The notes: generated by a model from the sequence alone, not told the origin. Numbered from the stretch's first letter, positions 6,127 to 63,101 are shown. The stretch is 64,000 nucleotides of DNA from a virus (IMGVR_UViG_3300032397_000003:32001-96000); one strand, 5' to 3'. Program-made: numbers and translations.

Positions 6127-6127
6127 A

Positions 6128-6472
6128 TTATTTTACACCACTAAAACAGTATAGAGCTTTTTTAAGTTTTAAGGTAATAGATTCTTTTACATCAGTTGGA
6201 CCTTGTACTAGGATGGTTCCTGTTTTATAGAAGTTAATATTTCCTTTTCTAAATACCAATTGAGTGAATTTATTATCCTCACTTATTCTCCATGTACCTA
6301 TTAACTTTTGTTCTAATATAAAAGGTTTTAAATCATCTATGTTTCCATAAAATAATAACTCTTGATCTTCTAAAGAGGGAGTTGGTATTCCTTCAAGCTC
6401 TAAAATTAAATCTGCGATTTCATTAAGATTCATTTTAGAAATTTTTAATATTATTTCTGTTTTTCTGTCCAT
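6128..6472 (-). CDS. Small protein with TBP-like (RNase HIII N-terminal/DUF3378-like) C-terminus
   Basis: INFYKTGTILVQG; GGAGG RBS. Confidence 0.45.
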   Translation of the reverse strand: MDRKTEIILKISKMNLNEIADLILELEGIPTPSLEDQELLFYGNIDDLKPFILEQKLIGTWRISEDNKFTQLVFRKGNINFYKTGTILVQGPTDVKESITLKLKKALYCFSGVK

Positions 6473-6474
6473 AA

Positions 6475-6673
6475 GAAAACCCTCCTGTTTTATTCAGAGG
6501 GCTTTCATTAAAAGCTTTATCTAATATAGTCTCATTGTTAAACTCATCAAGTAGCTCTGGAAGGAACTTGTTTTACTACAATGAAACTAAATATTCATTA
6601 AATTAGTAAGACTGTATAAATTATGCTTTCCAGAGCATTTTGCTACATGAATTTACAGAGAAATATTCCTCTG
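6475..6673. ncRNA. Structured intergenic element: RBS-sequestering hairpin plus long nested stem-loop
   Basis: Inverted repeats 6475-6484/6497-6506, 6554-6564/6626-6636, 6570-6578/6604-6612, 6580-6585/6594-6599, 6656-6660/6669-6673. Confidence 0.45.
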
Positions 6674-6716
6674 AGTATTGTTATTATTTATTAGTAAGAA
6701 AATTTTTAATAATATT

Positions 6717-6992
6717 TTAAATTTTTTGTTTTAAATCTTCTATAATTTCTGCTTTTAACATTCCATCTACATTTCTATAAATTTCTATACCTTTTAGAAT
6801 ATAGTATGATATATCTGGATTATTAAAACATAGTTCGATTACATCTTTTTTAGCATAATCATAATTAAGATATATTTTTTTATTTGCTCTCCAATTTTTT
6901 TTAATTGTATCTCCAATATGAATAGTCCAAAATTCTCTAGCCCCTATCTTAGAACTTTTAAGAGCAAGTGGATCACTATGCAATTCCTTCAT
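6717..6992 (-). CDS. Hypothetical protein
   Basis: ORF with RBS and TACTAAT at 7008-7014. Confidence 0.6.
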   Translation of the reverse strand: MKELHSDPLALKSSKIGAREFWTIHIGDTIKKNWRANKKIYLNYDYAKKDVIELCFNNPDISYYILKGIEIYRNVDGMLKAEIIEDLKQKI

Positions 6993-7094
6993 ATAATATC
7001 CTTATTTATTAGTATAGACTATAAAAAGTGAAATGTATTTTTTATGTACATTTCACCTTATTTAATTATTATTTCATAACTTTTTTATAAAAAT

Positions 7095-7427
7095 TTAAAT
7101 TTTTTCCTCTTTTTTATAATTAAATACAAGTTTATCAGCAGGAATAATACCTTTAAGCATTATCATCATCTGATTCTCAGGTAGGTCCTCTCTTTCTGTT
7201 CTTAATACAGATTCTTCTTTATTAAGAATAAATCCAAACAATAGACATAATCTAAAAGCATTGATTTTATCATTTATAGGTAGATTCAATTCAGTAAAGA
7301 AATTATCTAAATCCCGATAATACAAAAAGTTCATGAATTTTTTAGTTTCTTCTTGTATAGCTTGCATCTGTAAATTAGCTTCTTTTTCTGTTGATACTTG
7401 TAGACGATTTCTTTGTTTTCTTTTCAA
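7095..7427 (-). CDS. Hypothetical protein (TTG start)
   Basis: AAGGAG RBS upstream. Confidence 0.6.
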   Translation of the reverse strand: MKRKQRNRLQVSTEKEANLQMQAIQEETKKFMNFLYYRDLDNFFTELNLPINDKINAFRLCLLFGFILNKEESVLRTEREDLPENQMMIMLKGIIPADKLVFNYKKEEKI

Positions 7428-7616
7428 AGTTAAAACTCCTTTATTTAATAATTATCTATTCTATTAGATTATAAATTAGTAATCTATTTAATTTGCCCTT
7501 TGACATTAGTATTGAAATTTGAGAATAAATAGAATACACATTTTCATTTCTAATTGTTTTATATTTGACTATTCTCATTTATTCACTCCTTATCTAAATT
7601 TCTATTCCTTGTAATT

Positions 7617-7686
7617 ATAATATATAGAAATATTTATTAAAATTAAAATTTATTTTTTAATTTATTCATTATTTTCTATATATTAT
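7617..7686. promoter_or_regulatory. Back-to-back divergent class-A promoters (TTTAATT-N11-TTCTATATATTAT) at the strand switch
   Basis: Minus copy 7617-7647, plus copy 7656-7686. Confidence 0.8.
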
Positions 7687-7719
7687 TAGAGAAGGGAAAT
7701 TAAAATAGGAGAAAATAGT

Positions 7720-8895
7720 ATGGAACTATTAGAATTACACCAATATGTAAATAAGTTAAAAGAAGGATCATTTGAAGGTTGGTCAGAAGATGAAAGGCTT
7801 GCATATCTGACAGCTTGTATTTCTATTGAAAGGAAGATTGAAGAATTAACCAAGGAAAGTAGTATTAAATTTTTAAAAGAAATGATAAAAGAGGAGAAAT
7901 AAAATGGATAATTTAGAGGATCGTTTTATAAAAGAAACTGGACAAGATGTATTTATATCAAATTCCTATAATGAAGATTATTATAGTGCTAATTATGTTG
8001 AATGGTTAGAAAATTTAAACGATAACGATACTGATAATGTCTTTATTCAAGAAGTCTATAAAGCACTAGGATGGCAAGGTGGTACTATTCATCAAGTAGT
8101 TAAAGAAATTGAAAGATTAAAGAGTTGTGAAAGTAGTTATAAAGCAATATCAAGATAAGGAGAATTAAAATGAGTGATAAATATTTTAAAGATAAAGCAG
8201 AAGAGTGTTTTAATGAAATTTTAGGTAACTTTAATGATAAAGGTAGTAAATTATATACTTCAGAAATAGAACATATAATTTACATGGCTTTAAAAGAAGT
8301 AGCAAGAGATCAAAGATATGCTTGTATAGAAGAGATAACTATAAATTGTATAAGTAATAATTTACCAGAAAATTTTCAATATCGTAAAGTTAAAGGTTTA
8401 TTACATAATGCTGAAATAAAAGATAAGGAAATTAACACTGTCTCAGAACTTCATAAATGTATTGGTTGTGGTAAAACTGGAGAAGATGTTACATTTGGAC
8501 CTGATCCATATAGTGAGGATGTAAATGGGGATAGTACTACTGTTTGGGAGTGTACTAATTGTAGAAATATAAGTGCTAGTGATATATAAGGAGAAAGTAT
8601 GAAAAGAAATTATTGGCCACTATTTATATTGTTCACAATCATTGGGTCTGTAGCAATATATTATATGCTTAAAAGTCCTGAATTACAAATATTAGGATTT
8701 AATATGTTTTTCTCTTGGTTTTTAGTTAATGCCTTTGGAGGAATATACTTTAGTAGTCTACCTAGAGATGAAAATTCTATTATCTCATATTATTATGTGA
8801 CCAAATGTATTTATTGTGATAGTGTTATTATAGATTCAAATATCTGCACTGGTTGTGGAAGTGAAATTTTTTATGAAGAGAGTTACAAATGTTAA
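7720..8895 (+). CDS. Cluster of four small hypothetical genes (7720-7902, 7904-8158, 8170-8589, 8599-8895); the last two have Cys-rich zinc-finger-like C-termini and the last has TM segments
   Basis: Each has an AGGAG RBS; CxxC pairs. Confidence 0.65.
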
Positions 8896-11015
8896 CAGAA
8901 GAGCAGAAGTTAATAGTACAAAACGATGATCAACATATCCTTTGTGTAGCCAATGCGGGAACTGGAAAGACATTTACGGTAATAGAAAAGTTAGATCACC
9001 TTATAAATAAACAAAATATCCTTCCTGAGAGAATATTACTCACTTCTTTTTCAAGAGTTGCAAGTAATGAACTATATGAGAAAGCTTTAAAGAAAGTAGG
9101 TATACAGAAAGCAGATAAGATTATGATTGGAACACTTCATGCAATTTGTTATAAAGTAGTTTTAGAGAATTTGGATAAATGTAATCTTAAAGCTATAAAT
9201 ATAGTTAATGAAAGTTATCTTTCAGCTATTGCTTTTAATAAACACCCTGATATCTTTAAAGCTAGAAAGGAAGCTGTAAAAGTCACTTCCATGTATAGAA
9301 GAGAGCTATTATTAGGAAAAGAACAAAGACCAGACAGAATGGGATTAGCTGAGTTTAATGCTATTAAAGAAGCTCAAACAATTATGGAAGCGGATAATAA
9401 AATATTGTTTGATGATTTAATGATTAAGACAGTGCAATTATTTAATAAGTATCCTGAGATAAATAAAACATGGACTGATAAGTTTGATATAATAATATGT
9501 GATGAGGTACAGGATACAAATTTAATTCAATGGACTATAATTGATTTACTTAGAACATTTGAAACAAGAACAATGATGGTTGGAGATGCAAAGCAAAACA
9601 TATATGCCTTTAGGGGATGTCAGCATGGATATATGACACAACATAGGACTAGAAATAATTCAAAAGTATTTACTCTATCTGAAACATTTAGATTTGGACA
9701 AAACTTTGCTAATCTTTCAAATAGAATTATTGAGAATTTAGAATTAGATTCTATTTATAAAAAAGAAACAGTTACAAATGTTGATTGTACAAATGAACCT
9801 GAGTTTCATGCTTTATCCACTGAGAGTCAAGTTCAATTTATATTTGAAGATATAGTAAAGAAACAAGCAAGTGGTATATCTTATAAAGATTTTAATATTG
9901 TTTATCGCTACAATAAAGAATCACTTCCTTTTATGAAGAAGTTTATAGAAGAAAGAATTCCTTTTGAAACTAAGTCAGGGGATATATTTGAAAGAGCGGA
10001 ATTAAAATTTGTACTTAGAAGTTATGGACTTCTTGTAGATTTTAGAATATCAGATTGTATAGAACTTTTTGGAATGTTTCCTAATTTTATAGGTGACAAA
10101 ACTTTGACAAAAGTTTATAATGATTGTCCTACAAAAGGTTCAGTAATTGAACTACTAGACTTTGCAGTAAGATTTGATATTGAAGGAGTTGGATTTAAAA
10201 AGAAACAATCATTATCAGAAATGAAAGCAAGATTTAATGCTCTTAATAGATATATACATTCTGAAGTAAAAGATAGACCACAGTTTATTGATATAGCAAA
10301 TATTATGAATATGGATGAGACTAAGTTTATGTTGAAAGAGTCTGAGGAGAATGAAAATCCATCAGAAGATAGATATGCTTTTTTAGATTTTTTTCAAGAA
10401 AATTATAATAAATCAGAATGTAAAAATCCTCTTGATTGGTTTACTGAAGTTTCTTTAAATGGGCACAAAGTAAAAGAAAAGGTTAATGATAAAGTTCAAC
10501 TTAAAACTATTCATGGATGTAAAGGACAGTCATTACCAATTGTTTATCTTGTAGCTAATAGAATTTGTGATCCTATGTTTATCAATAATGAAGAGGATAT
10601 TGAAAATGAAAAGTATGTTCTTTACGTTTCGACATCTAGATCGGAGAAATACTTAGGAATATTTATCTCTAATCCAAAACAATTTAGATTTAATTTTATA
10701 TTTCCAGAAAATTGGGTTAAAAAGTATCTTCAAAATGAAGATGATAAGATTGAAAATGTAAATGGTTTTAATATTGCAGAATCTATTCTAAATACATTAA
10801 AAAATAATTATAAGATTAAGAAAAAAAGTTATAAGTCTGTAATAAATGAAAAATGTATTCCGGTAAGTAATACAGAAAGAGCAATTCAATTTTCACAAAA
10901 AGGTGAAAATATATGGCTTCCGATTAGTTTACTTGGATATGATGATAATAGATTTTTTCTTGAAGATTGGGTTATAACTAAAAATAAATATGGAAAGTAT
11001 GTTGAAAAATACTAA
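8889..11015 (+). CDS. uvrD: UvrD/PcrA SF1 helicase
   Basis: AGTGKT, GTLHA, DEVQD, VGDAKQNIYAFRG, TIHGCKG, YVSTSR. Confidence 0.93.
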   Translation: MLTEEQKLIVQNDDQHILCVANAGTGKTFTVIEKLDHLINKQNILPERILLTSFSRVASNELYEKALKKVGIQKADKIMIGTLHAICYKVVLENLDKCNLKAINIVNESYLSAIAFNKHPDIFKARKEAVKVTSMYRRELLLGKEQRPDRMGLAEFNAIKEAQTIMEADNKILFDDLMIKTVQLFNKYPEINKTWTDKFDIIICDEVQDTNLIQWTIIDLLRTFETRTMMVGDAKQNIYAFRGCQHGYMTQHRTRNNSKVFTLSETFRFGQNFANLSNRIIENLELDSIYKKETVTNVDCTNEPEFHALSTESQVQFIFEDIVKKQASGISYKDFNIVYRYNKESLPFMKKFIEERIPFETKSGDIFERAELKFVLRSYGLLVDFRISDCIELFGMFPNFIGDKTLTKVYNDCPTKGSVIELLDFAVRFDIEGVGFKKKQSLSEMKARFNALNRYIHSEVKDRPQFIDIANIMNMDETKFMLKESEENENPSEDRYAFLDFFQENYNKSECKNPLDWFTEVSLNGHKVKEKVNDKVQLKTIHGCKGQSLPIVYLVANRICDPMFINNEEDIENEKYVLYVSTSRSEKYLGIFISNPKQFRFNFIFPENWVKKYLQNEDDKIENVNGFNIAESILNTLKNNYKIKKKSYKSVINEKCIPVSNTERAIQFSQKGENIWLPISLLGYDDNRFFLEDWVITKNKYGKYVEKY

Positions 11016-14949: not shown

Positions 14950-16176
14950 ATGTCATCAGTACAAGACATGGTTAAAGAAAAAATGAAGATTCTAGAAGGC
15001 GGTGCTTTAAAAGAACTTCATAAAACATTTGGAGAGAATTCCTATTATATAGGAAAGAAAACAATTCCTCAAGTACCTTTGATATGTAGCTCAGGGTCAT
15101 TGAATCTTGATGAAGCATTAGGAATTGGAGGATGGCCAGCAGGAAGAATTATTGAGATTGGTGGTCAAGAATCATCAGGTAAATCCACTCTTACTCTTAT
15201 TAACATTGCAGAGTGTCAAAGAAAAGGAATGTTATGTGCTTATGTGGATGCAGAGCAATCATTTGACCCGGGATGGGCAGCTAAATTAAATGTTGACGTG
15301 GAAAATTTACTTGTAGTACAACCTGACTATTGCGAAGAAGCTTTTAATATGTTAAGAGTTATTTTAGATTCAAGTGTAATGAGTTTAGTAGTAGTTGACT
15401 CAACTAATTCAATGATTCCTAAGAGACTTTTTGAAGGCGATCCAGGGGATTCAGGAATGGGATTAGCAGCAAGAATATTTTCGCAGGAACTTCCTATTAT
15501 TAGAACTAAATGTACAAATACAGGAACGACTGTTATATTTCTTTCGCAAGTAAGAAGTAAGATTGGGGGATATGGTAATCCGGATGTAATCGGGGTAGGA
15601 AATGCTCTTAAATTCTATTCAAGTATTCGTATTAAGACTTCTAAAGCAGAAGTAGAAAAAACTGATGAAGAAGGACAAGAAAAAGTTGATGTAAATATGT
15701 CTATCTTTAAAAACAAAGTTGGTATTCCATTTAAGAAAGCATCTTTTACTCTTAATACAGGTAAGGATGGTGAGTATGGAATAGATACTATGAAAGAGCT
15801 TATAGAGTATGCTATTAGATATGAGATGGTTAAGAAAGCAGGTTCATGGTTTTCTTATATGCCAGTAGGAGGAGCTGAAGAAAAGCTTGGACAAGGTATG
15901 CCCAATGTTAAAAAGTTCTTTAAAGAAAATCCTGTAGTATTTGAAAAAGTAAGAGGGGATATTCTACAGAAGATTCAAGATGCAAGAAATGTTGCTGTAG
16001 GAGTTACTCCAGATTCTTTCAATAGTGTTATGTCTGCTGTAGAAGATAAGCCTAAAAGAAGAAGTAAAAAAGAGGAAGCTGTTGAAGAAAAAGTATTAGA
16101 TATTAAAGAAGCTGAACTTATTCCTGATGCAGAAACTCTAGAATATATGAAAGAAGTAGGAGAAATAGATAAATAA
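14950..16176 (+). CDS. recA: RecA recombinase
   Basis: LGIGGWPAGRIIEIGGQESSGKST, VDAEQ, GNALKFYSSIR, KNKV, KAGSWFSY. Confidence 0.97.
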   Translation: MSSVQDMVKEKMKILEGGALKELHKTFGENSYYIGKKTIPQVPLICSSGSLNLDEALGIGGWPAGRIIEIGGQESSGKSTLTLINIAECQRKGMLCAYVDAEQSFDPGWAAKLNVDVENLLVVQPDYCEEAFNMLRVILDSSVMSLVVVDSTNSMIPKRLFEGDPGDSGMGLAARIFSQELPIIRTKCTNTGTTVIFLSQVRSKIGGYGNPDVIGVGNALKFYSSIRIKTSKAEVEKTDEEGQEKVDVNMSIFKNKVGIPFKKASFTLNTGKDGEYGIDTMKELIEYAIRYEMVKKAGSWFSYMPVGGAEEKLGQGMPNVKKFFKENPVVFEKVRGDILQKIQDARNVAVGVTPDSFNSVMSAVEDKPKRRSKKEEAVEEKVLDIKEAELIPDAETLEYMKEVGEIDK

Positions 16177-16268
16177 AGTTTAATTTTATCGAAAAATTCT
16201 ATATATTATAAGTAGATAGTAAGATTAAACTTTTACTGTCTACTAAATATTTTAACTAAGGAGAAATT

Positions 16269-17921
16269 ATGAAAAAAATTGAGAAATTAACAAAAAAGCA
16301 AGAAGCACAATTAGAAGTTTATAGAGATAAGTGGCTTGCTATAGGTTTATCTACAGAGCAACCTTCTTTTGAAAGAACAAAAGAAATAATAGATAATGTT
16401 TATATTCATTTATTAGAAAAACCTATTGTTCCTGTAGTAGTACTTGATAATCCTTATGATACATGGGTAGCAGTTTGTATACATGCTTCAGAAAGGAATC
16501 AAGTTGGGAATCAAGTTAGGAATCAAGTTTGGAATCAAGTTGAGAATCAAGTTAGGAATCAAGTTGGGAATCAAGTTAGGAATCAAGTTTGGAATCAAGT
16601 TGAGAATCAAGTTAGGAATCAAGTTGGGAATCAAGTTTGGAATCAAGTTGAGAATCAAGTTTGGAATCAAGTTGAGAATCAAGTTGAGAATCAAGTTTGG
16701 AATCAAGTTGAGAATCAAGTTGGGAATCAAGTTGAGAATCAAGTTTGGAATCAAGTTGATAATCAAGTTAGGAATCAAGTTTGGAATCAAGTTGAGAATC
16801 AAGTTGAGAATCAAGTTGAGAATCAAGTTAGGAATCAAGTTGAGAATCAAGTTGAGAATCAAGTTAGGAATCAAGTTGAGAATCAAGTTTGGAATCAAGT
16901 TAGGAATCAAGTTGGGAATCAAGTTGAGAATCAAGTTGGGAATCAAGTTGAGAATCAAGTTAGGAATCAAGTTGAGAATCAAGTTTGGAATCAAGTTAGG
17001 AATCAAGTTGAGAATCAAGTTTGGAATCAAGTTAGGAATCAAGTTGAGAATCAAGTTGAGAATCAAGTTTGGAATCAAGTTGAGAATCAAGTTGGGGATC
17101 AAGTTGAGAATCAAGTTGAGAATCAAGTTTGGAATCAAGTTTGGAATCAAGTTGGGAATCAAGTTAGGAATCAAGTTGAGAATCAAGTTGAGAATCAAGT
17201 TGAGAATCAAGTTTGGAATCAAGTTTGGAATCAAGTTGAGAATCAAGTTAGGAATCAAGTTAGAGATCAGAAAAATTTATTAAATTTTGTCTATCCATAT
17301 TTAGATGGAAATTTAATGTCAGGATATTTTTCTTTTTATGATTTCTGTTTAAATGAATTAAAAGTAGATTTAGATATTAAATTTAAAAATATCTTTAATG
17401 TTTATAAAGATACTTCCGAATTATCTTTAATTTATCCTTTTGATGATATCTGTTTTGTTTGTTCTAAACCAATAGAGATTTATTTTAACGAAAACAAAGT
17501 ATTACATAATTCTAATGGGGCAAGTATTAAATATAAAAATGGATTTGAATTATATCATCTTAATGGAGTTAAAGTAACAAAGGAAATTGTAAAAATTAAA
17601 CCAGAAAAAATTACTGTTAATATGATTTTACAAGAACAGAACGTAGAAGTAAGGAGAGAGCTTCTGAGAAAACTTGGTATAGATAATTTTATTAAAAAAC
17701 TTAAAACTAAACCAATTGATACCCCAGAAGATAAAGTATATGAACTTTATAAATTTAAGATCGGAAATGATATAGACGCTACGTATCTTAAAATGTTAAA
17801 TCCCTCTTTAAAAGATACTTATCATTTTGAAGGGGTAGCTAATAGTTGTAAAACAGTAGAGGAAGCACTTGCATGGAGAGATTCAGAAGATGTATATATT
17901 AAACCAATAGAATTGACATAG
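16269..17921 (+). CDS. DUF6745-like protein containing 64 NQVx tetrapeptide repeats
   Basis: Post-repeat FYDF...KPIEI...LHNSNGASIKY.NG..LY.LNGV...NVEVRR pattern. Confidence 0.75.
   Translation: MKKIEKLTKKQEAQLEVYRDKWLAIGLSTEQPSFERTKEIIDNVYIHLLEKPIVPVVVLDNPYDTWVAVCIHASERNQVGNQVRNQVWNQVENQVRNQVGNQVRNQVWNQVENQVRNQVGNQVWNQVENQVWNQVENQVENQVWNQVENQVGNQVENQVWNQVDNQVRNQVWNQVENQVENQVENQVRNQVENQVENQVRNQVENQVWNQVRNQVGNQVENQVGNQVENQVRNQVENQVWNQVRNQVENQVWNQVRNQVENQVENQVWNQVENQVGDQVENQVENQVWNQVWNQVGNQVRNQVENQVENQVENQVWNQVWNQVENQVRNQVRDQKNLLNFVYPYLDGNLMSGYFSFYDFCLNELKVDLDIKFKNIFNVYKDTSELSLIYPFDDICFVCSKPIEIYFNENKVLHNSNGASIKYKNGFELYHLNGVKVTKEIVKIKPEKITVNMILQEQNVEVRRELLRKLGIDNFIKKLKTKPIDTPEDKVYELYKFKIGNDIDATYLKMLNPSLKDTYHFEGVANSCKTVEEALAWRDSEDVYIKPIELT
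16497..17264 (+). repeat. Tandem array of 64 x 12 bp AATCAAGTT-NNN (NNN = GAG/AGG/TGG/GGG, once GAT, once AGA)
   Basis: Directly visible; one unit begins GATC (DQV). Confidence 0.98.
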
Positions 17922-18271: not shown

Positions 18272-19556
18272 ATGGAAAGATCATGGAATAATGAATTTAA
18301 AGAGATACAACAAAGTTATGAGTTTGGATATCAAAAAATTAAAGTAATAGAGGATATTAACTATATGGATTCTAATTATAGTGATATTACTTGGTTAGAA
18401 GGATGGGAAAGAAATTATGTTGAGGAGAAAGTACAAGAGTTATTAGAAGAGTATAAAAGATTTAATACTTATCCTAAAGTGTATTATAAAATATGGATGA
18501 GACCTATAGGTCTAGTATTTGTAAAAGATGTAGAATAAGGAGAAATACAAATGAATAGTTTACTTCAATCAATAGAAGCAGAAAATAGTTTTTCTAAATT
18601 AGATCATAAGATAGATGTATGGTTAAAAGATCATCCTTTATCATCTAAAATACAAGACAGTGTACAAATAGCAAAAGAAGATATTGTATCATTTAATAAA
18701 ATGTTTTATGAGAGGTTATTTATATGAATCTTGAAAGAAGAGAAAAATTCAAACAGATTAAACAGATTGATAGATTAGGTAGAACACTAAAGGGGGATGA
18801 ACTTCTTATTACTTTATCCAATGGTAAACAAATAAGAACTTTTGGTGATATTGAATGTTTAACTGTAGATAGATTTGGAGATGAAGAACCAATTAAAGCA
18901 AGTCTACTAACTACAGAATTAGCAATTAAGATAGAACAGTTTAGTAATCAATTATAGGAGAAGTAGATGAGTTCTATTTTTTATTTCACTAAGTTTCAAA
19001 AATTTAAATATATCATTAGATATAAATTATCTAAAAGATATAAATTAAAATGTGATTTAGCTCAAAAGTTATTAGATAACCAAATTAAATATTTAAAATC
19101 TATAGATAAAAATAGGGTAATATCTCCAAGTAATATTCTATCTCTTATTGATTTTTCTTATTCAAAAAATATATGGAAAGATATTATTCAAAATCCTAAA
19201 TCAGATGACTTATACTATATAAATATGGAGAAATATAAATGATAGTTCAAAACATAGACATAAAAGGTAATAATTATGAGAGTATGGATACCGTTCCAGA
19301 ACCACTATCCACTTATATATCTTGGATATATCCTGAAATTTATGATCCTATTGATAAATCATATATTGAATTATCTTTAATACATACTAGGGCAGCTGAC
19401 AGTATAAGAATAAATTATGACTCTACAAGAGATGGTTGGGTAATTAAACAAGCGTCTGTTTTTGAATTTAATTGTGATGATAAAGTTTGTGATCAAGATT
19501 GGAAAGAAGTTGCTTTTATAGAAGCATGGGCAAGGGAGACTAAAAAAGATGATTAA
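18272..19556 (+). CDS. Small hypothetical genes (18272-18538, 18724-18957, 18967-19242, 19239-19556)
   Basis: ORF track, RBSs. Confidence 0.6.
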
Positions 19557-21705
19557 AAAATTGTATATTCGGGATTTCAGAAACATCAAAGAATTAATTA
19601 TAGAACCATCTGAGTATGTTAATCTTATATCAGGTAATAATGGGGAAGGTAAATCTTCTATTCTCTACGCTATTGAATATTGTCTTACAGATAATCTTAA
19701 TGAAAAGATTTCAGAGTATGTAAGATGGGGGTGTGATAAGTTTTTTCTTGAAATGACTTTTGATCATTCAGGTAGTGAATATGTAATTAAAATTGAAGGT
19801 GATAAAACAGCTAAGAAGGAATTAAAAGTTGATGGTAATACTTATAAAAATTCTGAAGCTACAAAAAAGTTAGCTGAAATAATTGATCCTAATATTATCA
19901 GATATTCTTCTATAAGTGAACAGGGCAAGACAGCACAGATATTATTTGATACTCCCGCTAATAGACTTAAAAAACTTAAAGAGATTTTAGGTATAGACAA
20001 GATATCAGAACTATGTCAAGATTTAAAAGAGGATATAGATAAAAAACAAATTGAAATAAATCTTCATGATAAAGAGATGAAAGTTTTAGAAGATAAGACT
20101 TATAACTTTATTACTGTTGAAAAATTACCTAATATAGAAGATATAAAATCTAAGTTTGATATACTTGAAAAAGATAAAAAGAATTATGATCTACAATCAG
20201 TAATATATGAGACATATTTAAAAGATAAAAAATTATATGAAGATTCAATTATAAATTTGAATACATATGATAAAGAGACTAAACAGTTTAAAGATAAAAT
20301 AGTTGAATTAGAATCTTCTCAAAAAACATATGAAGATAATACCTCTGTGGATGATTTAAATGAAAAAATAATTAACTTAGAAAAAGAACAAATTCAAATT
20401 CAAAATGAAAGAGATGCTTATCAAAGAATAAGTTTAAAAATACAATCTTTAAGAAGTTCAATTTTATCAGAAAGTAATGAATTGCTTTTATATCCTTTGA
20501 GAAGATTATCCACTTGTAAATATACAAATGAAGATTTGTTAATTGTAGAGGATTTATTAACCAAAGATAAAATAAATATAGCATCAGTAAAAAAATCTTT
20601 ACAGTTAGCAAAAGAAGGTAAATGTCCAACTTGCGGGCAAGATTATATAGTTAATGCTGATGAATTAAAAGTAATGATAAATGCTTTACAATTTACTATA
20701 TTAGATAATGAAGAGAAAATAAAAGAAATAAAAAAAGAAATAGAAGATTACAATAAATCTTTTAATGAACAAGAAAAAATTAAAATAAGAAGACAAAACT
20801 GTCAAAATAAAATAGATGATTGTCAATCTGAATTGGATGGGTTACTTAATGGATTTATTGAAAGGGACTTGAATGAACCTCAAGTAGATTATAGAAATAC
20901 AATAAGTAGTTTACAAAAAAAGATTAAAGACCATAATGCTGTTAATCTTTTTAATGTTAATATATCTAATGAAGTAAGAGACTTCAAAAATAAGATAGAA
21001 ACAAATATTAAATTAAGTGAACAATTTAGAAAGGTATTACTTCCGGTTGAAGTAAATGAACCAGAAATGTATGATCATGTGGAGTATGAATTCTTAAAAA
21101 GTGAAATACTTATTTATGATGCAAGGTTAAAGGATCAAGAAAAACTAATTGCTCATAATGAGAAAATAGAGGAAGAAAAAGAATCGGATAAATTAAAAAT
21201 AAAATCTTTAATTTCATTTATAGATTCTATATCTTATAAAGTGGGGATACTAAAAGAATCAAGACAGATTCTTGATAAAGATTTTAGTGCTTGGTTAATA
21301 GATCAAGGTGCTGAGTATCTAAAAGAGAAAATGAATGAATTTTTTAGTAATGCATATGGCAAGTACGAAATTACATTTTCTCAGGATAAGAATAGTATTG
21401 ATTTTTTCTATTCAGATGGTGATAATATTTCACCTTGTTCAATGGCTAGTGGACATGAACAAAAAGTTTTAGCAGTAGGATTTCGTATCGCTTTATCTTC
21501 ATTAAATAATATAGGTCTTATGATGTTGGATGAGGTAGATTCCGATGGAAGTGGGGAGAGGTCACTTCAACTTTATGAAGCTATACTAAGTAATATGAGT
21601 GGAACACAATTCTTTGCTATAAGCCATTCAGAAGAAACTAAAGAAATGTTATTACAGCAACATGGGAGTAAGGAATTTAATGTTGTAAATGGAATGATAA
21701 ATTAA
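19549..21705 (+). CDS. sbcC: SbcC/Rad50-like SMC ATPase
   Basis: GNNGEGKSS Walker A, coiled coil with CPTC zinc hook, ASGHEQ signature, LDEVD Walker B. Confidence 0.92.
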   Translation: MIKKLYIRDFRNIKELIIEPSEYVNLISGNNGEGKSSILYAIEYCLTDNLNEKISEYVRWGCDKFFLEMTFDHSGSEYVIKIEGDKTAKKELKVDGNTYKNSEATKKLAEIIDPNIIRYSSISEQGKTAQILFDTPANRLKKLKEILGIDKISELCQDLKEDIDKKQIEINLHDKEMKVLEDKTYNFITVEKLPNIEDIKSKFDILEKDKKNYDLQSVIYETYLKDKKLYEDSIINLNTYDKETKQFKDKIVELESSQKTYEDNTSVDDLNEKIINLEKEQIQIQNERDAYQRISLKIQSLRSSILSESNELLLYPLRRLSTCKYTNEDLLIVEDLLTKDKINIASVKKSLQLAKEGKCPTCGQDYIVNADELKVMINALQFTILDNEEKIKEIKKEIEDYNKSFNEQEKIKIRRQNCQNKIDDCQSELDGLLNGFIERDLNEPQVDYRNTISSLQKKIKDHNAVNLFNVNISNEVRDFKNKIETNIKLSEQFRKVLLPVEVNEPEMYDHVEYEFLKSEILIYDARLKDQEKLIAHNEKIEEEKESDKLKIKSLISFIDSISYKVGILKESRQILDKDFSAWLIDQGAEYLKEKMNEFFSNAYGKYEITFSQDKNSIDFFYSDGDNISPCSMASGHEQKVLAVGFRIALSSLNNIGLMMLDEVDSDGSGERSLQLYEAILSNMSGTQFFAISHSEETKEMLLQQHGSKEFNVVNGMIN

Positions 21706-34349: not shown

Positions 34350-34607
34350 TATTAAATTCTCAGATATACTAATAATTATACAGGAATTGATAAGTAGATG
34401 CAAAAAGAATTAAAAGGTAAAATAGTAAAAGTTTATATTGATCCAGAAACAAAAAGAGAGTATGAAGGGGATGGTAGAATAGAAAGGGTTATAAAACAAT
34501 TCACAGATGATTTATTTTATTGTGATATTAGTTTTCCCGATGATTATTTTTCTACCACTATTGATGTAAATGATGTACTTTACTAAAATAAAAAAGGAGT
34601 TAAGAAA

Positions 34608-35210
34608 ATGGACAATAGTTTGTTACATAATTTTATAGAAAATTATATGGCTGATCATAATCTTCCAATGGATGAAATTACTTTAGTTGGAATTAGAGAT
34701 TCAAAAGATCAGGATAAAGATGCTATCAATGATCAACTTGGATTTATTACTAAAACAGAATTGTTTCTTTGTAAAGGTACAACAGAACCCGGAGTATATT
34801 GGGTAAAGGATAAAGTAGAAAGAAATAAACAAGGTACTTTTCATTTGAACGAAGGATTTCATGAAGCTATTTGGAGTATAGGAATTCATAAAGGATATGA
34901 AGCACTTACAAATCAATATCCTCAATGTAAACCAACTAAAGGTTGGAGAGATGTCAATTATGATTTTACTAAAGATGCTAAAGATGTTCAAGTGTGTGAT
35001 TATTTTGGAATAAATTTTCATAGAATGCATCCTATATCAATAGTAGATAAGGTAGGGAAATACTCCGCTGGATGCCAAGTAGTACAGGATGCTAAAAATT
35101 TAAAATATATTTTAGATACAATAAAAAATACTCAGATGTATAAAGGAACATCTAAGAAAACTGTATTTAATTATTTATTGTTCACTATTGATCAATTACC
35201 AAAAATTTAG
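34608..35210 (+). CDS. Putative peptidoglycan hydrolase/endolysin (YkuD-like His/Cys motif)
   Basis: LVGIR, GTTEPG, GINFH...SAGCQV. Confidence 0.55.
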   Translation: MDNSLLHNFIENYMADHNLPMDEITLVGIRDSKDQDKDAINDQLGFITKTELFLCKGTTEPGVYWVKDKVERNKQGTFHLNEGFHEAIWSIGIHKGYEALTNQYPQCKPTKGWRDVNYDFTKDAKDVQVCDYFGINFHRMHPISIVDKVGKYSAGCQVVQDAKNLKYILDTIKNTQMYKGTSKKTVFNYLLFTIDQLPKI

Positions 35211-56502: not shown

Positions 56503-56621
56503 GGAGAAATAAAAATGAAAGAAGTTACGGCTTTAAGTATTGGAATAATGGTAGGTGTGATAGATTGTTTATTTATTATTTATTTGATTGCTAAAGTATC
56601 TTTTCTACATGTGTTAATTAT

Positions 56622-57011: not shown

Positions 57012-57493
57012 GACAGAATGTTGATGTGTATAAAGAAATGAGGGTAGATGATGAGAGAAGATTCTACCCTTCTTATTATCCAGTTGCAAAACATGAACCA
57101 TTGAATAGTAATTTTACAATACTAGAGAGTCCAGAAGATATTGGATATGGTTTGATAAGTTTAGTTTCTTTTGAACCCACTGATTTAATTGCTCAATGTA
57201 TGGGAGTTGCTATTGATTTTCAAACTTTACATTCTTTAGAGCACAAAGAAAATATTTTTTACCATGATCCATTCTTTAGTGGGTATCTCCTTCATTCATG
57301 TCAACCAAATGCAAAATTAGATATGTCTAATTTTACTTTACACGCTGTAGAGCATATATCTGCTTTTTCATTGATTACAATTGATTATAATGCTACAGAG
57401 AAAAAATTATATCAAGGTTTCGATTGTCTGTGTGGACATGATTGTTGTAAAGGATGGATTGGGGGGTATTCTTATAAGGAGGAAAGTAGATGA
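57008..57493 (+). CDS. SET-domain methyltransferase with post-SET motif
   Basis: GYGL, LHSCQPN, ITIDY, FDCLCGHDCCKG. Confidence 0.8.
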   Translation: MRQNVDVYKEMRVDDERRFYPSYYPVAKHEPLNSNFTILESPEDIGYGLISLVSFEPTDLIAQCMGVAIDFQTLHSLEHKENIFYHDPFFSGYLLHSCQPNAKLDMSNFTLHAVEHISAFSLITIDYNATEKKLYQGFDCLCGHDCCKGWIGGYSYKEESR

Positions 57494-57752
57494 TAAATGG
57501 AATAGCAATAATTGTAAGTATACTTGCAATGGCTATATGTGCTTTGAAGGGTAATGATACTCTTGTAATAATGAATGGCTTCTTGCTTATCTTTAATGTG
57601 ATATTATTAGTTATGAGGGATAAATAATATTTCAAATTTAAATTTAATTTTTAATGGAATTTCTATATATTGTAAGTATAAAAATAATTTAGGGTTGTAG
57701 CACAAGTAAATTGTTGTGACAACAATAAACCAATATATTAAAGGAGGTAAAA

Positions 57753-58223
57753 ATGCAATATCTAAAGAGTCACATGGATCAAAAATGTCGTCCTTATGCA
57801 TCTAAAGCTATAAGGGAAGGTTGTAATATATTAGAAATAGATTTACAAATGGCACAAGGAGAAATAGTTTTAGGACATAATTTTAGACCTCCATTAAAGA
57901 TGCTTTTTGACTGTACTCTTGATGAATATCTACATAGAATAGCAGAATCACATCCTGGAGTAAAAGTAATAGTTCAATTAGATATTAAAGAAATATGTAT
58001 TACTTCTAAGGGTATGAAAAACTTTTCTAAAAAATTGGCAGATCAACTTATTCCATATTTTAATGGCAACATTGAAATAATTGTTTCAGCTAATTCGGGT
58101 TTTAATCGTTTAAAAACTCTTGAATATGTAAGGTCATATCTAAATACTTCTGGTTGGCCAGCCCCTATATGGTACGAATGGAGAGAAGGAAAGGATATTA
58201 AAACGGTTGATTTATGGAGATGA
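57753..58223 (+). CDS. PLC-like/GDPD-like phosphodiesterase (Aim6-like N-terminal half)
   Basis: SHMD...RP...GCNILEIDL...LGH, QLDIK. Confidence 0.55.
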   Translation: MQYLKSHMDQKCRPYASKAIREGCNILEIDLQMAQGEIVLGHNFRPPLKMLFDCTLDEYLHRIAESHPGVKVIVQLDIKEICITSKGMKNFSKKLADQLIPYFNGNIEIIVSANSGFNRLKTLEYVRSYLNTSGWPAPIWYEWREGKDIKTVDLWR

Positions 58224-58368
58224 AACGTGAAGACTATAGTAAGGCATTTGATAGATATCGGATAGTCCTTGCACAGCATAAGATACATGGTAGAGATAAG
58301 ATTATAGGCTTAATGTTTTATGGATATTCTGAAGAGGTGTCAAAAAAAATCATAGAAAAATGGAATGA

Positions 58369-60039
58369 GTGTTACTCAGGGGGGAGTCTATGAACAAAGC
58401 AAGAAATAACTTTTATAATATTTTTATAAAACCAAAAGAATTAACAAGTGAAGATTTAGTGAATATTCATAATTATATATCTGAACTTGAAGCAGATAAA
58501 GCGGAGTTAATAGAATTTGTGGAGGAGATTCAAAATAGTTTTTCTATTTATACATATGACGAATTTAAGGATTGGAATGATAGAGTAAACAAATTCAAGG
58601 AGGAAAGATGAAATGTGAAGATTGTAATTGTTTCTATCATAGAAGACAAAAGGAGAAAGAAATGGAAAAACAAAAGTTTCAGTTTGAGAGTGTTGAAGCA
58701 TTTCAAATATATGATAATCAAATAAATAGCAGTACATATAATGAAAGATTAAAACGAGCTATTCAGTATGGTTACATCCGCAAATCAGAACTTGAAACAC
58801 TGGTTGAGGAAGCGGAAGAGATTTATGATGAAGCGTTTGATGATAAAAGTACAAAATATACAGCATTGGAAATGAAGCAATATCACGCAATTCAAGCCTT
58901 AAAAAAAGATCATCCGGAGTTTAAGAAATGATAACTGAATGTAAAAACTGTGTACTACAAAGAAACTTTGAATGCCCTCAGTATTTGGGAGAAGCTGTTG
59001 GATGGCGATGGTTCACAAGAACAGATGATTCTTGGAAAGATTGTTATAAGAATTATTTAGCTAAGAAAGAATTAGATTAAAATTTAGGAGAAGTAAAATG
59101 AAAAAATACATAGCAATAGTAATAATATTAGCGATATCAATAGGAATCAATATATGGTTCTTTGCGGGTAAAGGGATTCAGATTTATAATTATACCAGAA
59201 ATATAAATCATCAGGAACAATATCAACAGCAATGGCAGGGGATGCTATCTATCAATCAGTTTATGACTCAGGGAAATACTCTCGAGTGGAAACTTGTTAA
59301 ATGCTTGTTAGAAGATGTACCTGCAGAACTAAATAAATTGCACCCAATATCTAGTCTATATTGTAAGATTACTCTACATTCTAATTCAGCATGGGTTGAT
59401 CTAATTTATCCAGATATTTTTACTAAAACAAAAGATGTAGAGGTTAAGAAATAAATGTTTTACGAAGGTGATGAAGTTAGAACTTGTTCTAAAGTCACTC
59501 AGAAGACTAAAGATATTCTAGTTGCTAATGGTATTAAACCCGGACAGAAAGGAATAGTTATATCTGAAGTAACCATAGTAACTGTTAATTTCGGTGGTAA
59601 AATAGTAACCTTAGATGAAAATGCTATAGAGTCTATTCTTGAGTATAAACCTAATAATAACTTTGATCTAGATGATTTAAAAGGATTATTTGGAATGAAA
59701 TAATAAGGAGGAAGAATGAATAAAAAATATTTAATAGTAATACTATCTTTAATTATGTTTTCAATAATTCTTGGTTTATGTATAGCGTTTTATACGCACG
59801 ATAAAATAAATAAATTTGAAGCAAAACTTAAAGAAACTTATTCTGAAGTAGTATATATTAAAAATAGTCAATTTATAGTCTCAGATAAAAAAGGAGATAT
59901 TCATTTAATAAATATGTCAGGTAAAACTCAAATCTTACTTTCTCTACAGGACATCGAAAGTGGATTAAATAGAGATTTCACTCTAAAGGATATTAGTAAA
60001 CCAGATTTAAAATTAAAGCATAATTTTACTAATAAATAA
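58369..60039 (+). CDS. Small hypothetical genes (58369-58611, 58608-58931, 59098-59454 TM, 59455-59703, 59716-60039 TM)
   Basis: ORF track, RBSs, N-terminal hydrophobic helices. Confidence 0.6.
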
Positions 60040-60053
60040 TAAAGAGGGTAAAG

Positions 60054-60860
60054 ATGAAAAAATGGTTATGGATTTTTAGTGGATTACTGTTATGCTATAC
60101 TGTATTATGTATTAGTCTTGCTAATAAGGGATTTGGAGCAGAATATGAAGAAAGTGTAACTAAATATAAAGATAACTATTTTTTGTTTGGTGATAAAGAA
60201 GCTCAAACAAAAGTACAGGTTTCGGTAAAATATAATATTCTTTATCCTTCTGAAACAGGATTTAATTTAGGATATACCCAAACAAGTAACTGGATTGTTT
60301 ATAGTGGAAGAGATACCTTTTATACAATGTATCAACCGGAAGCATTTTTTAATTTTGAATCAGGTAAAAATATATTTAAAGATTATATTATTCCTTATGT
60401 GGATTATATTCAAGTATCTCCTATATGTCATAATAGTACTGGAGTAGAAGGGGATAATCATAGAAGTATAAATATATATTATGCACAAGTACAAGCATCG
60501 ATTGGTGATGTATATAACTTTGGATTAAATCTAAAAGGTTTTGGTTATTATACAATAGCAGATAAAAATAAAGATATAAGAGACTACAAAGGATACTACG
60601 AGGCAAAGTTATTTTTTAAGTTAAAAAGTAAAACAGTTGAATACTTAGATAAAGAAGAATTAGCATTTTCATTTGGTGGTTATGATAAATCGGATTATGA
60701 TCATACAAGAAAAGGTTGGTTTTGTATAGAGGCTAGATTTAGAATCATAACAACGTATGTACAACCAAAACTATTTTGCCAATTTTATCGGGGGTATAAT
60801 GAGTTCATGGTCCAGTACAACAAAAAAACAAACTCTGTTCGTGTAGGTTTAGTATTTTAA
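60054..60860 (+). CDS. pldA: Outer-membrane phospholipase A (OMPLA/PldA-like)
   Basis: Signal peptide, KVQVSVKY, GYTQ, YQPE, catalytic HNSTG, GYNE...YN, terminal Phe. Confidence 0.8.
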   Translation: MKKWLWIFSGLLLCYTVLCISLANKGFGAEYEESVTKYKDNYFLFGDKEAQTKVQVSVKYNILYPSETGFNLGYTQTSNWIVYSGRDTFYTMYQPEAFFNFESGKNIFKDYIIPYVDYIQVSPICHNSTGVEGDNHRSINIYYAQVQASIGDVYNFGLNLKGFGYYTIADKNKDIRDYKGYYEAKLFFKLKSKTVEYLDKEELAFSFGGYDKSDYDHTRKGWFCIEARFRIITTYVQPKLFCQFYRGYNEFMVQYNKKTNSVRVGLVF

Positions 60861-60873
60861 AGAGGTAGATTAA

Positions 60874-61290
60874 ATGGTAGTTAAAGAAAAGAAAACAATA
60901 CTCAATCTAGGCTATGCACAATTATGGACAGCAGCTACGGTGATAGCGGGATTACTTGGTACTCTTTATGCAGCTGGAATAAAAACAGAAACAGAAATTA
61001 AGAAATTTGAGTTGATGAAACAAGCTCAGAAGTATGAAGATCAAATAGCTGAAATAAAAACAATTTCAAGAGAATTTGAAGCAGATGCAATTTTCTTTAA
61101 AAGCCAATATATAAAAACTCATGCAAGATTGAGTGTATGTATGAAAGAGGACATTTCAAAATATCCATTAGAAAAATTAACTTCTCCATTTTTAGCTAAA
61201 GTAAAAACCTCTTCCACAGAAGAAACCTCGGTTAAGTTTAACGAGAAAGAAATTATTCCTGTCCTGAAGTTACAGAGGAAAAAGAAATAA
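60874..61290 (+). CDS. Single-TM coiled-coil protein
   Basis: N-terminal hydrophobic helix followed by heptad-like region. Confidence 0.6.
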   Translation: MVVKEKKTILNLGYAQLWTAATVIAGLLGTLYAAGIKTETEIKKFELMKQAQKYEDQIAEIKTISREFEADAIFFKSQYIKTHARLSVCMKEDISKYPLEKLTSPFLAKVKTSSTEETSVKFNEKEIIPVLKLQRKKK

Positions 61291-61324
61291 CCTACTAATT
61301 ATCTAAAATAGTTGGGGGTTATAT

Positions 61325-61819
61325 ATGAGTAGGATATTTATAGGAGTGGATAATGGGGTCTCAGGAAGTGTGGGAATTATCTCCGATGAAGAGGTATTAT
61401 TTTTTCTAACCCCAGTTAAACTTTGTACCAACTATCAAAAGAAAGCAAAGCAGTTAAATAGAATAGATTTTCCCGCTTTAATAGAAATATTTAAAAATTA
61501 TCAAGAATTAGATGTAAAGGCTATACTGGAAAGACCGATGGTCAATCCCACAAGATTTGAAGCTACAGCATCAGCACTTAGAGCATTTGAAGCTACTCTT
61601 ATTGTATTAGAAGAATTAAATATTTCTCATGAATTTGTAGATAGTAAACAATGGCAAAAAGAAATGCTTCCAAGTGGATTGAAAGGATCAGAGCAACAAA
61701 AGAAAGCTTCTATGGATGTTGCTTGTAGAATGTTTCCTCAATTCAAAGAAGATATTATTAAACATAAAGATGGGGATGGTCTTCTTATTGCTGAATGGGC
61801 TAGAAGGAATAATCTATGA
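61325..61819 (+). CDS. RuvC-like Holliday junction resolvase
   Basis: IGVDNG, ILERP, WQK, DGDGLLIA. Confidence 0.8.
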   Translation: MSRIFIGVDNGVSGSVGIISDEEVLFFLTPVKLCTNYQKKAKQLNRIDFPALIEIFKNYQELDVKAILERPMVNPTRFEATASALRAFEATLIVLEELNISHEFVDSKQWQKEMLPSGLKGSEQQKKASMDVACRMFPQFKEDIIKHKDGDGLLIAEWARRNNL

Positions 61820-62287
61820 GTCACCTTTACGAAACAAGCACTAAAGAAAAATTAGAATTATTTTGTGAGATAAGAAATATTATACGCGATTGTATTGGTG
61901 ATTGTGGAAATAACAATTTAATTGTTTTTAAAATAATGATGTTATTAGATGAAAAGACACTAGAGAAAGATATCAGATTAAGAAGAGCTTTAGACCAAAT
62001 TAACCACTCTAGTAATTAAAGGGGAAAGTATGTTCCAGTATAAAGTAGATGTATCAAAAGGAGAATCTGAAATAGTACAGTTACATGCATTCACTCTTGG
62101 ATATTTCTGGGAGTTTGATCAATGTAAACAAAATGATAGAAACTTCCCTTGTCATTTACATTCCCACTATTTATACTTTAACAAGAATGGTGAAATCTGG
62201 TTTTCAGATGATTTACGTTACTTCAGAAATGAAAGAGAACATATGCTTATAACCCCCAGTGATTTTTTGCAATTAAATAAAAAATAA
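61816..62287 (+). CDS. Two small hypothetical genes (61816-62019, 62030-62287)
   Basis: ORF track. Confidence 0.55.
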
Positions 62288-62356
62288 TTTTTAATTCTTT
62301 TTAAAAATTCTATATATTATAAGTAGAAAAGAAAAATTTAAATAAGGATTAAAATA

Positions 62357-62986
62357 ATGAGAAAATTTCTAATACTATGGTTTATAATTCTACTGGTTGT
62401 AAAGTGTTCAAATGAAAAATCAATAACAATAGATCCTCTTATAAATGCTTATAAAGTAGATAATGTTAAACTAGATAAAAGTATTATTAAAGATAGTTTA
62501 AATCATTTTTTACATAAGTATAATAGAAAATGGAGTCAAGAGAATAAACAGAAATGTATAGATGCTTTATACTATGGACAACAAGAATTTGATATAGATT
62601 ACAAGATAGTAATGTCTTTAATTTCTATCGAGAGTCAATATAGAATAGTAGTTACAGGAAAGAATATAAGAAGAGGAAAAGTCAAATCTATCGATTATGG
62701 GCTAACTCAACAGAACTCTAAATATATAAAACAGAGATATAAATCAACAGAGGAGTATCTCAATAAGTATAAAATAAAATATACTAATTCAAACTTTGAT
62801 ATTGGAAAGAATATCTTCTCCTGTTATATGTTATTAAGAGATACAAATGAATATGGTTCTTTGATTATGTTTAGAGACTATATAGCAAGTTATAATGTTG
62901 GTATAAGAGGTGTTAGACAAGAACATACTCAGAAAATAGCTGATAAATATTTTAATAAATTTATGAAGGAGCTTTTAAGCATATGA
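62357..62986 (+). CDS. Lytic transglycosylase (SLT) with signal peptide or lipoprotein signal
   Basis: IESQY, DYGLTQ, ASYNVG; MRKFLILWFIILLVVKC. Confidence 0.8.
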   Translation: MRKFLILWFIILLVVKCSNEKSITIDPLINAYKVDNVKLDKSIIKDSLNHFLHKYNRKWSQENKQKCIDALYYGQQEFDIDYKIVMSLISIESQYRIVVTGKNIRRGKVKSIDYGLTQQNSKYIKQRYKSTEEYLNKYKIKYTNSNFDIGKNIFSCYMLLRDTNEYGSLIMFRDYIASYNVGIRGVRQEHTQKIADKYFNKFMKELLSI

Positions 62987-63101
62987 TAACACTACTTGTT
63001 ATAATCGCATTGATTACTACCCTACTTATAATTCACAATTGCAAAAACGATTTTTAATTCTGATAGATATTTCTATATATTACAAAAAAGGAGAATAATA
63101 A

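Follow-up and report, generated by a model that had tools for sequence, protein, structure and literature searches.

This analysis concerns a 64,000-nucleotide (nt) stretch of viral DNA, hereafter the window, which comprises bases 32001-96000 of a single 155,573-bp contig; unless stated otherwise, coordinates are those of the whole window. The open reading frame (ORF) 60054..60860 is a genuine outer-membrane phospholipase A (OMPLA) by family, fold and catalytic residues, carried here by a phage. The best reading of its function, put forward tentatively, is that this OMPLA helps to break the host outer membrane at lysis. We arrive at this reading because the enzyme is genuine, is selected in phages and has a promoter-like element (TACTAATA) in common with the tail genes, because no spanin is recognisable in the genome, and because the OMPLA genes of some other phages lie in blocks that resemble lysis cassettes. 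An earlier note on the same DNA (the original prediction) had placed the gene in an envelope cluster and suspected a spanin-independent lysis of the outer membrane.

The identity of the gene is supported at several levels. The Pfam model PF02253 (PLA1), with which the original prediction proposed to check the gene, matches at 77.2 bits against a cut-off of 27 (E 2e-21), from profile position 50 to 256 of 257. The signal peptide, HxSxG motif and terminal Phe that had been noticed are all present: the protein starts with MKKWLW and a long hydrophobic signal (a signal peptide of about 34 amino acids (aa)), holds H126-N-S128-T-G130 (HNSTG, residues 126-130) and ends in VGLVF. In the HMMER alignment to the OMPLA structures of Escherichia coli and Salmonella (1qd6, 7ezz), the phage residues H-N-S...R-S-I-N lie over H-D-S...R-S-W-N, the motif that we take to hold the catalytic His142, Ser144 and Asn156 in E. 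coli numbering. Across 19 aligned homologs (43-80% identity) H126, S128, G130 and R137 are invariant, and N140 and the terminal Phe are found in at least 90%. Export signals are seen at the N-terminus as well, where the helix is followed by GFGA/EYE; the homologs show Ala-x-Ala-type sites.

A structure model points in the same direction. AlphaFold, run on the 19-homolog alignment, gives a model (pLDDT 82.8, pTM 0.73) with a signal helix (residues 2-24) followed by approximately 12 strands, of which 11 are long and one, at the N-terminus, is short and broken. When this model is compared with the PDB using Foldseek, ranks 1 to 8 are all OMPLA (E 2e-10 to 2e-9, TM-scores 0.65-0.74), and the next match has an E-value above 2e-3, seven orders of magnitude worse. 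Given the family match, the conserved catalytic residues and the OMPLA fold, the protein is therefore a real and probably active OMPLA. With the cellular PldA/OMPLA enzymes (PF02253; 1qd5, 1qd6, 1fw2, 7ezz) it has the family, the fold, HxSxG with the downstream Asn, the Sec signal, the C-terminal aromatic residue and a barrel of about 12 strands in common. It differs from them in being phage-encoded, in its low identity to the solved enzymes (about 20%) and in its compact form: the N-terminal extension is missing, as the Pfam match starts only at profile position 50. A further difference concerns the position of E. coli Ser152, whose side chain is a calcium ligand. The aligned residue is His136 in the window and His also in most homologs; Ser is kept in two of them (P0020 and P0035).

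The source is a complete genome of an uncultured phage of sediment origin: it is an IMG/VR virus record with direct terminal repeats, for which CheckV gives a completeness of 100%, and the tail sheath, baseplate wedge proteins and a tape-measure-like protein are encoded outside the window. G+C ranges from 24 to 31% throughout and equals 29.7-29.8% in both 2-kb bins over 58-62 kb, so that the OMPLA gene matches its surroundings. The phage gene is under selection, with an intact frame and with catalytic residues that are invariant or nearly so in the homologs. In the population data, contigs of all four sediment runs examined cover OMPLA, which is thus retained in each of them; the gene itself varies little.

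OMPLA genes recur in phages. All 35 homologs found (42-99% identity) carry PF02253, and viral proteins make up 71% of an atlas cluster of 60 PLA1 proteins. In addition, OMPLA was recovered in ten other independent phage contexts, from uncultured lineages; the metagenome profile scan for OMPLA used a narrower alignment of 8 sequences. The family has no PHROG and is nearly absent from deposited phages, where 50,697 records contain one weak protein match (27% identity, on a 4.3-kb record), yet at least ten lineages of uncultured phages carry it. In the literature we found no account of an OMPLA encoded by a phage, and in the papers found an outer-membrane lysis role is not described for the OMPLA of any phage. 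The phage protein is a new member of a known enzyme family, and its use in lysis would be a new variant of phage outer-membrane disruption.

Late expression is suggested by the upstream element. The TACTAAT reported at 60027 is indeed there: the distance from its last base to the OMPLA ATG is 20 nt, AAAGAGG stands in this interval, and the gene has its own promoter-like element and ribosome-binding site. The bare TACTAAT is not over-represented genome-wide (70 copies against approximately 84 expected). For TACTAATA, 26 of the 44 copies in the genome are located 8-60 nt upstream of a co-oriented start codon; in a control with 280 permutations of its letters, a mean of 5.4% of the copies was so placed (about 1.4 per word). 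Hence TACTAATA is a real promoter-like upstream element. It precedes the tail sheath gene, a baseplate wedge gene and the tape-measure-like gene, as well as several genes starting with MKRY or MERY and the operon of a 62-aa ORF and the endolysin-like gene at 34608 (copy at 34367). The element resembles what we take to be the T4 late promoter, TATAAATA. Because it is common to OMPLA and the tail genes, late expression of OMPLA is plausible. In relatives, similar AT-rich words stand at the same distance from OMPLA (L020, one of the recovered loci: TATTAATA), without the exact motif.

A second form, TACTAATT, takes the place of TACTAATA before the genes for UvsX, the sliding clamp and the resolvase. 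In the window the two forms are found, for example, at 14917, 22480 and 61293, the last being the resolvase copy (TACTAATT), versus 26520, 34367 and 60027 (TACTAATA). This split may mark two temporal classes, though as a tendency only and not a clean one.

A search of the genome for spanins, also proposed in the original prediction, found none; this is a weak negative, as spanins are diverse and the lipobox of the host is apparently unusual (VKC in the transglycosylase described below). As the spanin census recommends (PMC6139136), we looked for lipoproteins first, using strict and relaxed lipobox screens over all start codons of the complete genome. The only credible lipoprotein obtained is the exported lytic transglycosylase of the SLT family (the SLT) encoded downstream of OMPLA, and no lipoprotein of the o-spanin or u-spanin type was seen. 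The Pfam models for Rz, Rz1 and T4 holin-T had no match in the genome; the PHROGs gave no lysis match for any small membrane protein and no holin family match near OMPLA. OMPLA itself has a signal of the signal-peptidase-I type, without a lipobox, and matches no spanin model. The proteins at 59716 and 60874 have the type II topology of an i-spanin, but neither matches an Rz model or a spanin PHROG, and a lipoprotein partner is lacking. In the published census, an identifiable spanin is missing from 91 of 677 phages of Gram-negative hosts, and its authors suggest that 'an OMP could act as an o-spanin', OMP being an outer-membrane protein (PMC6139136). One 145-aa protein encoded outside the window (genome positions 136366..136803, minus strand) has an N-terminal signal, a C-terminal transmembrane (TM) segment and no family match. 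It was rejected as a u-spanin because its cleavage site is of the signal-peptidase-I type and it has no lipobox.

Wall-cutting enzymes are another component of a lysis system, and the window offers two candidates. The SLT lies 1.5 kb downstream of OMPLA. Taken alone, this ORF scores 21.0 bits with PF01464, just below the cut-off of 21.3; however, 22 of its 31 homologs carry the domain, and E92-S93, D113, G115-L116, Q118, Y179-N180 and G182 (the Glu-Ser, GLTQ and YNxG motifs) are invariant in 17 sequences. Its profile also matches the catalytic-Glu region of lysozymes (E 2e-4). The exported SLT neighbour of the original prediction is therefore borne out by its homologs and its invariant motifs. 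Since a conserved Cys directly follows the hydrophobic N-terminus in the phage family (VKC, ISC, IRC, INC, LGC, SAC), the SLT is probably a lipoprotein, in which it would resemble the cellular membrane-bound lytic transglycosylases. The unusual residues before this Cys suggest a relaxed lipobox in the host. A loop of the SLT (62667..62697) also varies among sediment populations, through small deletions.

The second candidate, the 34608 protein, sits behind TACTAATA and the 62-aa ORF. It is the weakest item of the original prediction, which took it for a putative endolysin: one partial PHROG match agrees with this, but neither Pfam nor a sequence search of the PDB yields a match. Its His, followed after 17 residues by Ser-x-Gly-Cys, recalls by eye the YkuD-type L,D-transpeptidases; Pfam does not report that family. 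At the level of whole genomes, searches of five OMPLA phage records for Phage_lysozyme and Amidase_2 gave no match. Such blanks mean little, because the same search missed the weak SLT of the window.

To see in which company OMPLA is found elsewhere, we compared the genes within approximately 5 kb of it across the recovered loci (11 loci, numbered with L). One of these, L003, is a strain variant of the window phage: the gene order is the same, and an additional 3.5 kb of genes follows the SLT. L007, whose replication module is syntenic (45-92% identity), is a true relative, but its OMPLA gene is located at a different site, directly after nrdD and a 62-aa ORF, which is the slot of 34608 in the window. 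Eight others (L004, L005, L006, L008, L009, L010, L022 and L025) have essentially only OMPLA in common with the window. Just two neighbours recur beside OMPLA elsewhere, both in L020: the ORF 62030..62287, and the 107-aa protein, the only envelope-type neighbour to do so, whose homolog (48% identity) is encoded directly upstream of OMPLA and carries the canonical lipobox FLLSC. For the 138-aa protein no homolog was found beside OMPLA in the other loci. OMPLA is therefore a mobile accessory gene. Because the neighbours differ and most contexts have only OMPLA in common, the envelope cluster is largely a local arrangement in the window and not a module. Of the cluster originally proposed, the membrane proteins and the SLT are indeed present; its status as a conserved unit did not hold, with a resolvase gene inside the stretch and other neighbours elsewhere.

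Three of the unrelated contexts are of particular relevance to lysis. In L008 and L025 the order is a single-TM protein (119-126 aa), a putative peptidase, OMPLA, a small hydrophobic protein (57-60 aa) and a lipoprotein (84-90 aa), and the block stands between head genes (major head protein, E 1.5e-46) and tail-side genes. A similar OMPLA block is seen in L005, a complete genome of 85,750 bp. Judged by gene order and topology these blocks have the architecture of a lysis cassette and look lysis-like; their parts gave no lysis-family match. The putative peptidase belongs to a family of about 185 aa whose genes directly adjoin OMPLA in five contexts; they lie upstream of it in L005, L008 and L025, and downstream of it in L007 and L022. 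Cys47, His143 and Asp158 are invariant in this family, and its model (pLDDT 77) has a papain-like (clan CA) cysteine peptidase fold. Closest are C39-type peptidase domains, staphopain and pseudomurein endoisopeptidase (Foldseek E 1.6e-3; VIA Z 9.7-8.6), whereas CHAP and NlpC/P60 hydrolases score lower (Z 6.1-6.6). The family is absent from the genome of the window, in which the only match reaches 14.5 bits. The idea that the 34608 protein belongs to the same family was dropped (hhalign probability 0.3%).

The manner in which a phage OMPLA could contribute to lysis can be outlined by analogy with the cellular enzyme. The host would make the protein, export it by Sec and insert it in the outer membrane with its own barrel-assembly machinery; the host must then be able to assemble a beta-barrel in an outer membrane, which agrees with the diderm host originally implied. 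Transcription from TACTAATA, as for the tail genes, would lead to late accumulation. Like cellular OMPLA, which is active only as a homodimer, the enzyme would probably be latent as a monomer. At lysis the envelope would be perturbed by membrane holes and by wall cutting through the exported SLT and/or the 34608 protein, phospholipids would appear in the outer leaflet, and OMPLA would be activated and hydrolyse them. The hydrolysis would weaken or dissolve the outer membrane and let the virions escape. The gene directly upstream of OMPLA encodes a small membrane-tethered protein by which the enzyme may be tuned or triggered. The principle is known from cells, in which catalytically active PldA can drive lysis under envelope stress and a Ser-to-Ala mutant abolishes it (PMC8508112).

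A number of points weigh against a role in lysis. First, the OMPLA block falls inside the replication-gene region, near the RuvC-like resolvase and the clamp loader; because T4-like phages scatter their lysis genes (PMC6139136), this location is not strong counter-evidence. Linkage to lysis genes in the window amounts to the SLT at 1.5 kb and three single-TM proteins near OMPLA, with the resolvase in between. Second, the neighbours are not conserved and the site differs in related phages, as is seen for accessory 'moron' genes. Third, TACTAATA also precedes non-structural genes such as that for a DHH phosphoesterase, and is for this reason not proven to be late-specific. Fourth, His136 replaces the Ser152 equivalent in most phage copies, so that regulation may differ from that in E. 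coli. Fifth, the cysteine peptidase partner is closest to C39-type domains and not to known endolysin folds. Finally, the L005, L008 and L025 blocks contain a lipoprotein and an N-terminally anchored protein, which are maybe ordinary spanins. If these pairs are spanins, OMPLA may be an extra there and not a replacement. The term 'spanin-independent' thus agrees with the genome of the window, in which no spanin was found, but is not established, because those cassettes hold possible spanins. A stronger version, in which phage OMPLAs form a new class of enzymatic outer-membrane disruptors and here replace spanins altogether, possibly with the adjacent tethered proteins as a periplasm-spanning unit with a lipase end, seems to us rather improbable.

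The most serious alternative, though an unlikely one, is that OMPLA is an accessory ('moron'-type) gene that remodels the envelope during infection, by blocking superinfection, by releasing decoy vesicles or by reducing re-adsorption to debris. The neighbouring small membrane proteins, which have no lysis-family match, would then be further exclusion factors; in T4, Imm and Sp are exclusion factors. The mobility of the gene fits this, as it occupies different sites in related phages and is the sole gene common to several unrelated ones. The region is variable too: the sibling strain carries an additional 3.5 kb there, with a homing-endonuclease-like gene among others, and population variation is concentrated in one flanking protein, a pattern often seen for surface-conflict genes. 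On the other hand, the promoter-like element links OMPLA to the virion genes, and in three phages OMPLA is embedded in a lysis-like block between head and tail genes. Moreover, an uncontrolled outer-membrane phospholipase would risk premature lysis (PMC8508112).

It might also be argued that OMPLA is the outer-membrane half of a non-canonical, spanin-like bridge, in which the type II protein 59716 or 60874 would reach across the periplasm and touch the barrel, making the disruption both targeted and enzymatic. N-terminally anchored proteins with exported domains are encoded on both sides of OMPLA, the upstream 107-aa protein is still adjacent in L020, no lipoprotein o-spanin was found in the genome, and the census suggestion quoted above points the same way (PMC6139136). 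Yet the 138-aa protein lacks conservation beside OMPLA, the 107-aa protein takes the form of a lipoprotein in L020 and is not of type II there, and the neighbours in other OMPLA phages are quite different. We regard such a bridge as distinctly improbable.

Still less probable is a metabolic helper, which would free fatty acids and lysophospholipids from the host membranes for energy or lipid turnover in a long infection in anoxic sediment. The phage does carry other metabolic genes, such as an anaerobic ribonucleotide reductase and a phosphoribosyltransferase-like gene, and it comes from sediment metagenomes; however, no genes for fatty-acid uptake or degradation were seen within 5 kb of OMPLA in the 11 loci. 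That the gene is a functionless passenger recently taken from a host is hardly credible: its distribution is mobile and patchy, but the frame is intact, the catalytic residues do not change even among homologs as distant as 43% identity, the G+C equals that of the phage, the gene has its own promoter-like element and ribosome-binding site, and it is retained in all four sediment populations examined.

A contribution of OMPLA to lysis would have parallels in known systems. In the release of colicins and other bacteriocins ('quasi-lysis'), small lysis lipoproteins activate the OMPLA of the host. The likeness is that a mobile element would use OMPLA activity to make the envelope leaky, as predicted here for the phage, and small lipoproteins adjoin the phage OMPLA in L020, L005, L008 and L025. 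Unlike in colicin release, the phage carries the enzyme itself, and the adjacent small proteins have no detected similarity to any family. If true, the phage enzyme would be a direct counterpart to the colicin plasmids that exploit the OMPLA of the host.

Non-spanin agents that act on the outer layer are known as well, and they show that phages lacking spanins can employ other means at this layer. LysB of mycobacteriophages is a soluble alpha/beta-hydrolase, a lipid esterase that acts on the mycolic-acid layer at lysis. The 'disruptin' gp28 of phage phiKT is a small cationic peptide that disrupts the outer membrane without being a spanin (bioRxiv 10.1101/515445; PMC8765421). Both resemble the role proposed for OMPLA, LysB also in hydrolysing lipid esters, but neither is a membrane-integral barrel assembled by the host. 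The spanins themselves (lambda Rz/Rz1, T4 PseT.3/PseT.2, T1 gp11; PMC6139136) have the same proposed role, removal of the outer membrane as the last step of lysis, and type II membrane proteins flank the phage OMPLA. Spanins, however, are lipoproteins or periplasm-spanning coiled coils, whereas OMPLA is a beta-barrel enzyme, which would hydrolyse membranes rather than fuse them. Finally, in the PldA-dependent autolysis of Neisseria and Yersinia, a catalytically active OMPLA turns envelope stress into lysis (PMC1087465; PMC8508112). That enzyme is chromosomal and acts in stationary-phase or mutant cells, unlike an enzyme timed by a phage.

How phages without spanins pass the outer membrane is an open question, to which a phage OMPLA would, if the reading is true, be an enzymatic answer. 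One alternative to spanins has been demonstrated so far, a cationic peptide (bioRxiv 10.1101/515445), and OMPLA would join spanins and that phiKT peptide as one more way to complete the final stage of lysis in Gram-negative hosts. Should this role prove true, a lipase that is assembled by the host and triggered by stress would also be useful for permeabilising the outer membrane of laboratory strains in a controlled manner.

The coordinates of OMPLA, its neighbours and the other features discussed are given in Table 1. As originally noted, TM-type proteins are found near OMPLA: each of the ORFs at 59098, 59716 and 60874 has one N-terminal hydrophobic segment after a basic N-terminus, and none has a Pfam or PHROG match. 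The C-terminal part of the protein at 60874 is charged and probably helical. Population differences are concentrated at 59197-59281, within the 118-aa membrane protein, and are dense there in two sediment runs.

Table 1. Positions of the OMPLA gene, its upstream element, neighbouring genes and partner genes in other phages (window coordinates, or those of the locus named).
Feature	Position	Strand	Basis or remark
45-aa ORF, two hydrophobic segments, holin-like size; speculative, may not be a gene	57490..57627	+	no PHROG match
118-aa protein, N-terminal hydrophobic segment (signal or anchor)	59098..59454	+	hydrophobicity; variation hot spot
82-aa soluble protein	59455..59703	+	no family match (Pfam, PHROG)
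107-aa protein, N-terminal membrane anchor (TM at residue 3), exported domain of about 80 aa	59716..60039	+	
Promoter-like element TACTAATA	60027..60034	+	overlaps last codons of the upstream ORF; ends 19 nt before OMPLA ATG
OMPLA homolog, 268-aa precursor	60054..60860	+	PF02253, structure model, homolog alignment
138-aa protein, basic N-terminus, one TM segment (about residues 17-35), type II topology	60874..61290	+	
RuvC-like Holliday-junction resolvase, not an envelope protein	61325..61819	+	phrog_1770, E 3.9e-11
85-aa protein	62030..62287	+	phrog_17589; also near OMPLA in L020
Exported lytic transglycosylase (SLT family), probably a lipoprotein; candidate lysis hydrolase	62357..62986	+	PF01464, motifs
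Clamp loader	63102 (start)		PHROG
200-aa 'endolysin-like' protein	34608..35210	+	phrog_3000 (unknown function) and partial endolysin PHROG, E 1e-11
Partner family of about 185 aa	L005 9222..9779; L008 9233..9799; L025 5432..5989; L007 10775..11338; L022 6790..7344		no Pfam or PHROG match

Beyond the OMPLA block, nearly all genes of the window from 8.9 kb on lie on the plus strand and have functions in DNA metabolism: helicases, a UvsX-like recombinase, SbcC, a sliding clamp, NrdD, a DNA polymerase, methyltransferases, a DnaB-like helicase and the clamp loader. DNA of the window recurs in sediment metagenomes, and the block 59.7-63.9 kb is contiguous on contigs from several other sediment samples. 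A joint from 61501 to 63285 was disregarded, as only one contig supports it, on one side by no more than 25 letters. Among deposited phages, no DNA similarity was found for 56001-64000. A search for kin with the DNA polymerase gave two records only, one of which is an uninformative fragment (26% complete, without OMPLA). As for the host, the IS605-family TnpB of the window gave only a match of 49% identity on a 2.6-kb fragment of a Babeliales metagenome-assembled genome, which we do not take as host evidence.

In the sibling strain L003 the extra genes (4587..8125 of that locus, between the SLT and the clamp loader) are all absent from the window. They begin with a holin-like ORF that has two TM segments and overlaps the stop codon of the SLT; the others are an ORF with several TM segments, a kinase/phosphatase-like gene and a GIY-YIG-like homing endonuclease gene.

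Two further observations concern nrdD and the polymerase. Short ORFs similar to the C-terminus of NrdD (53-55 aa, with a CGYFRP-type motif) adjoin OMPLA in L005 (10750..10917) and L010 (9348..9509), and a full nrdD (6444..9671) precedes it in L007; these may be traces of the travel of the OMPLA gene, or a spare glycyl-radical domain. In L007 the DNA polymerase is split into two parts approximately 1.2 kb apart (15738..17681 and 18912..19979), which are 78% and 92% identical to the single 870-aa gene of the window, as expected for the insertion of an intron or a homing endonuclease.

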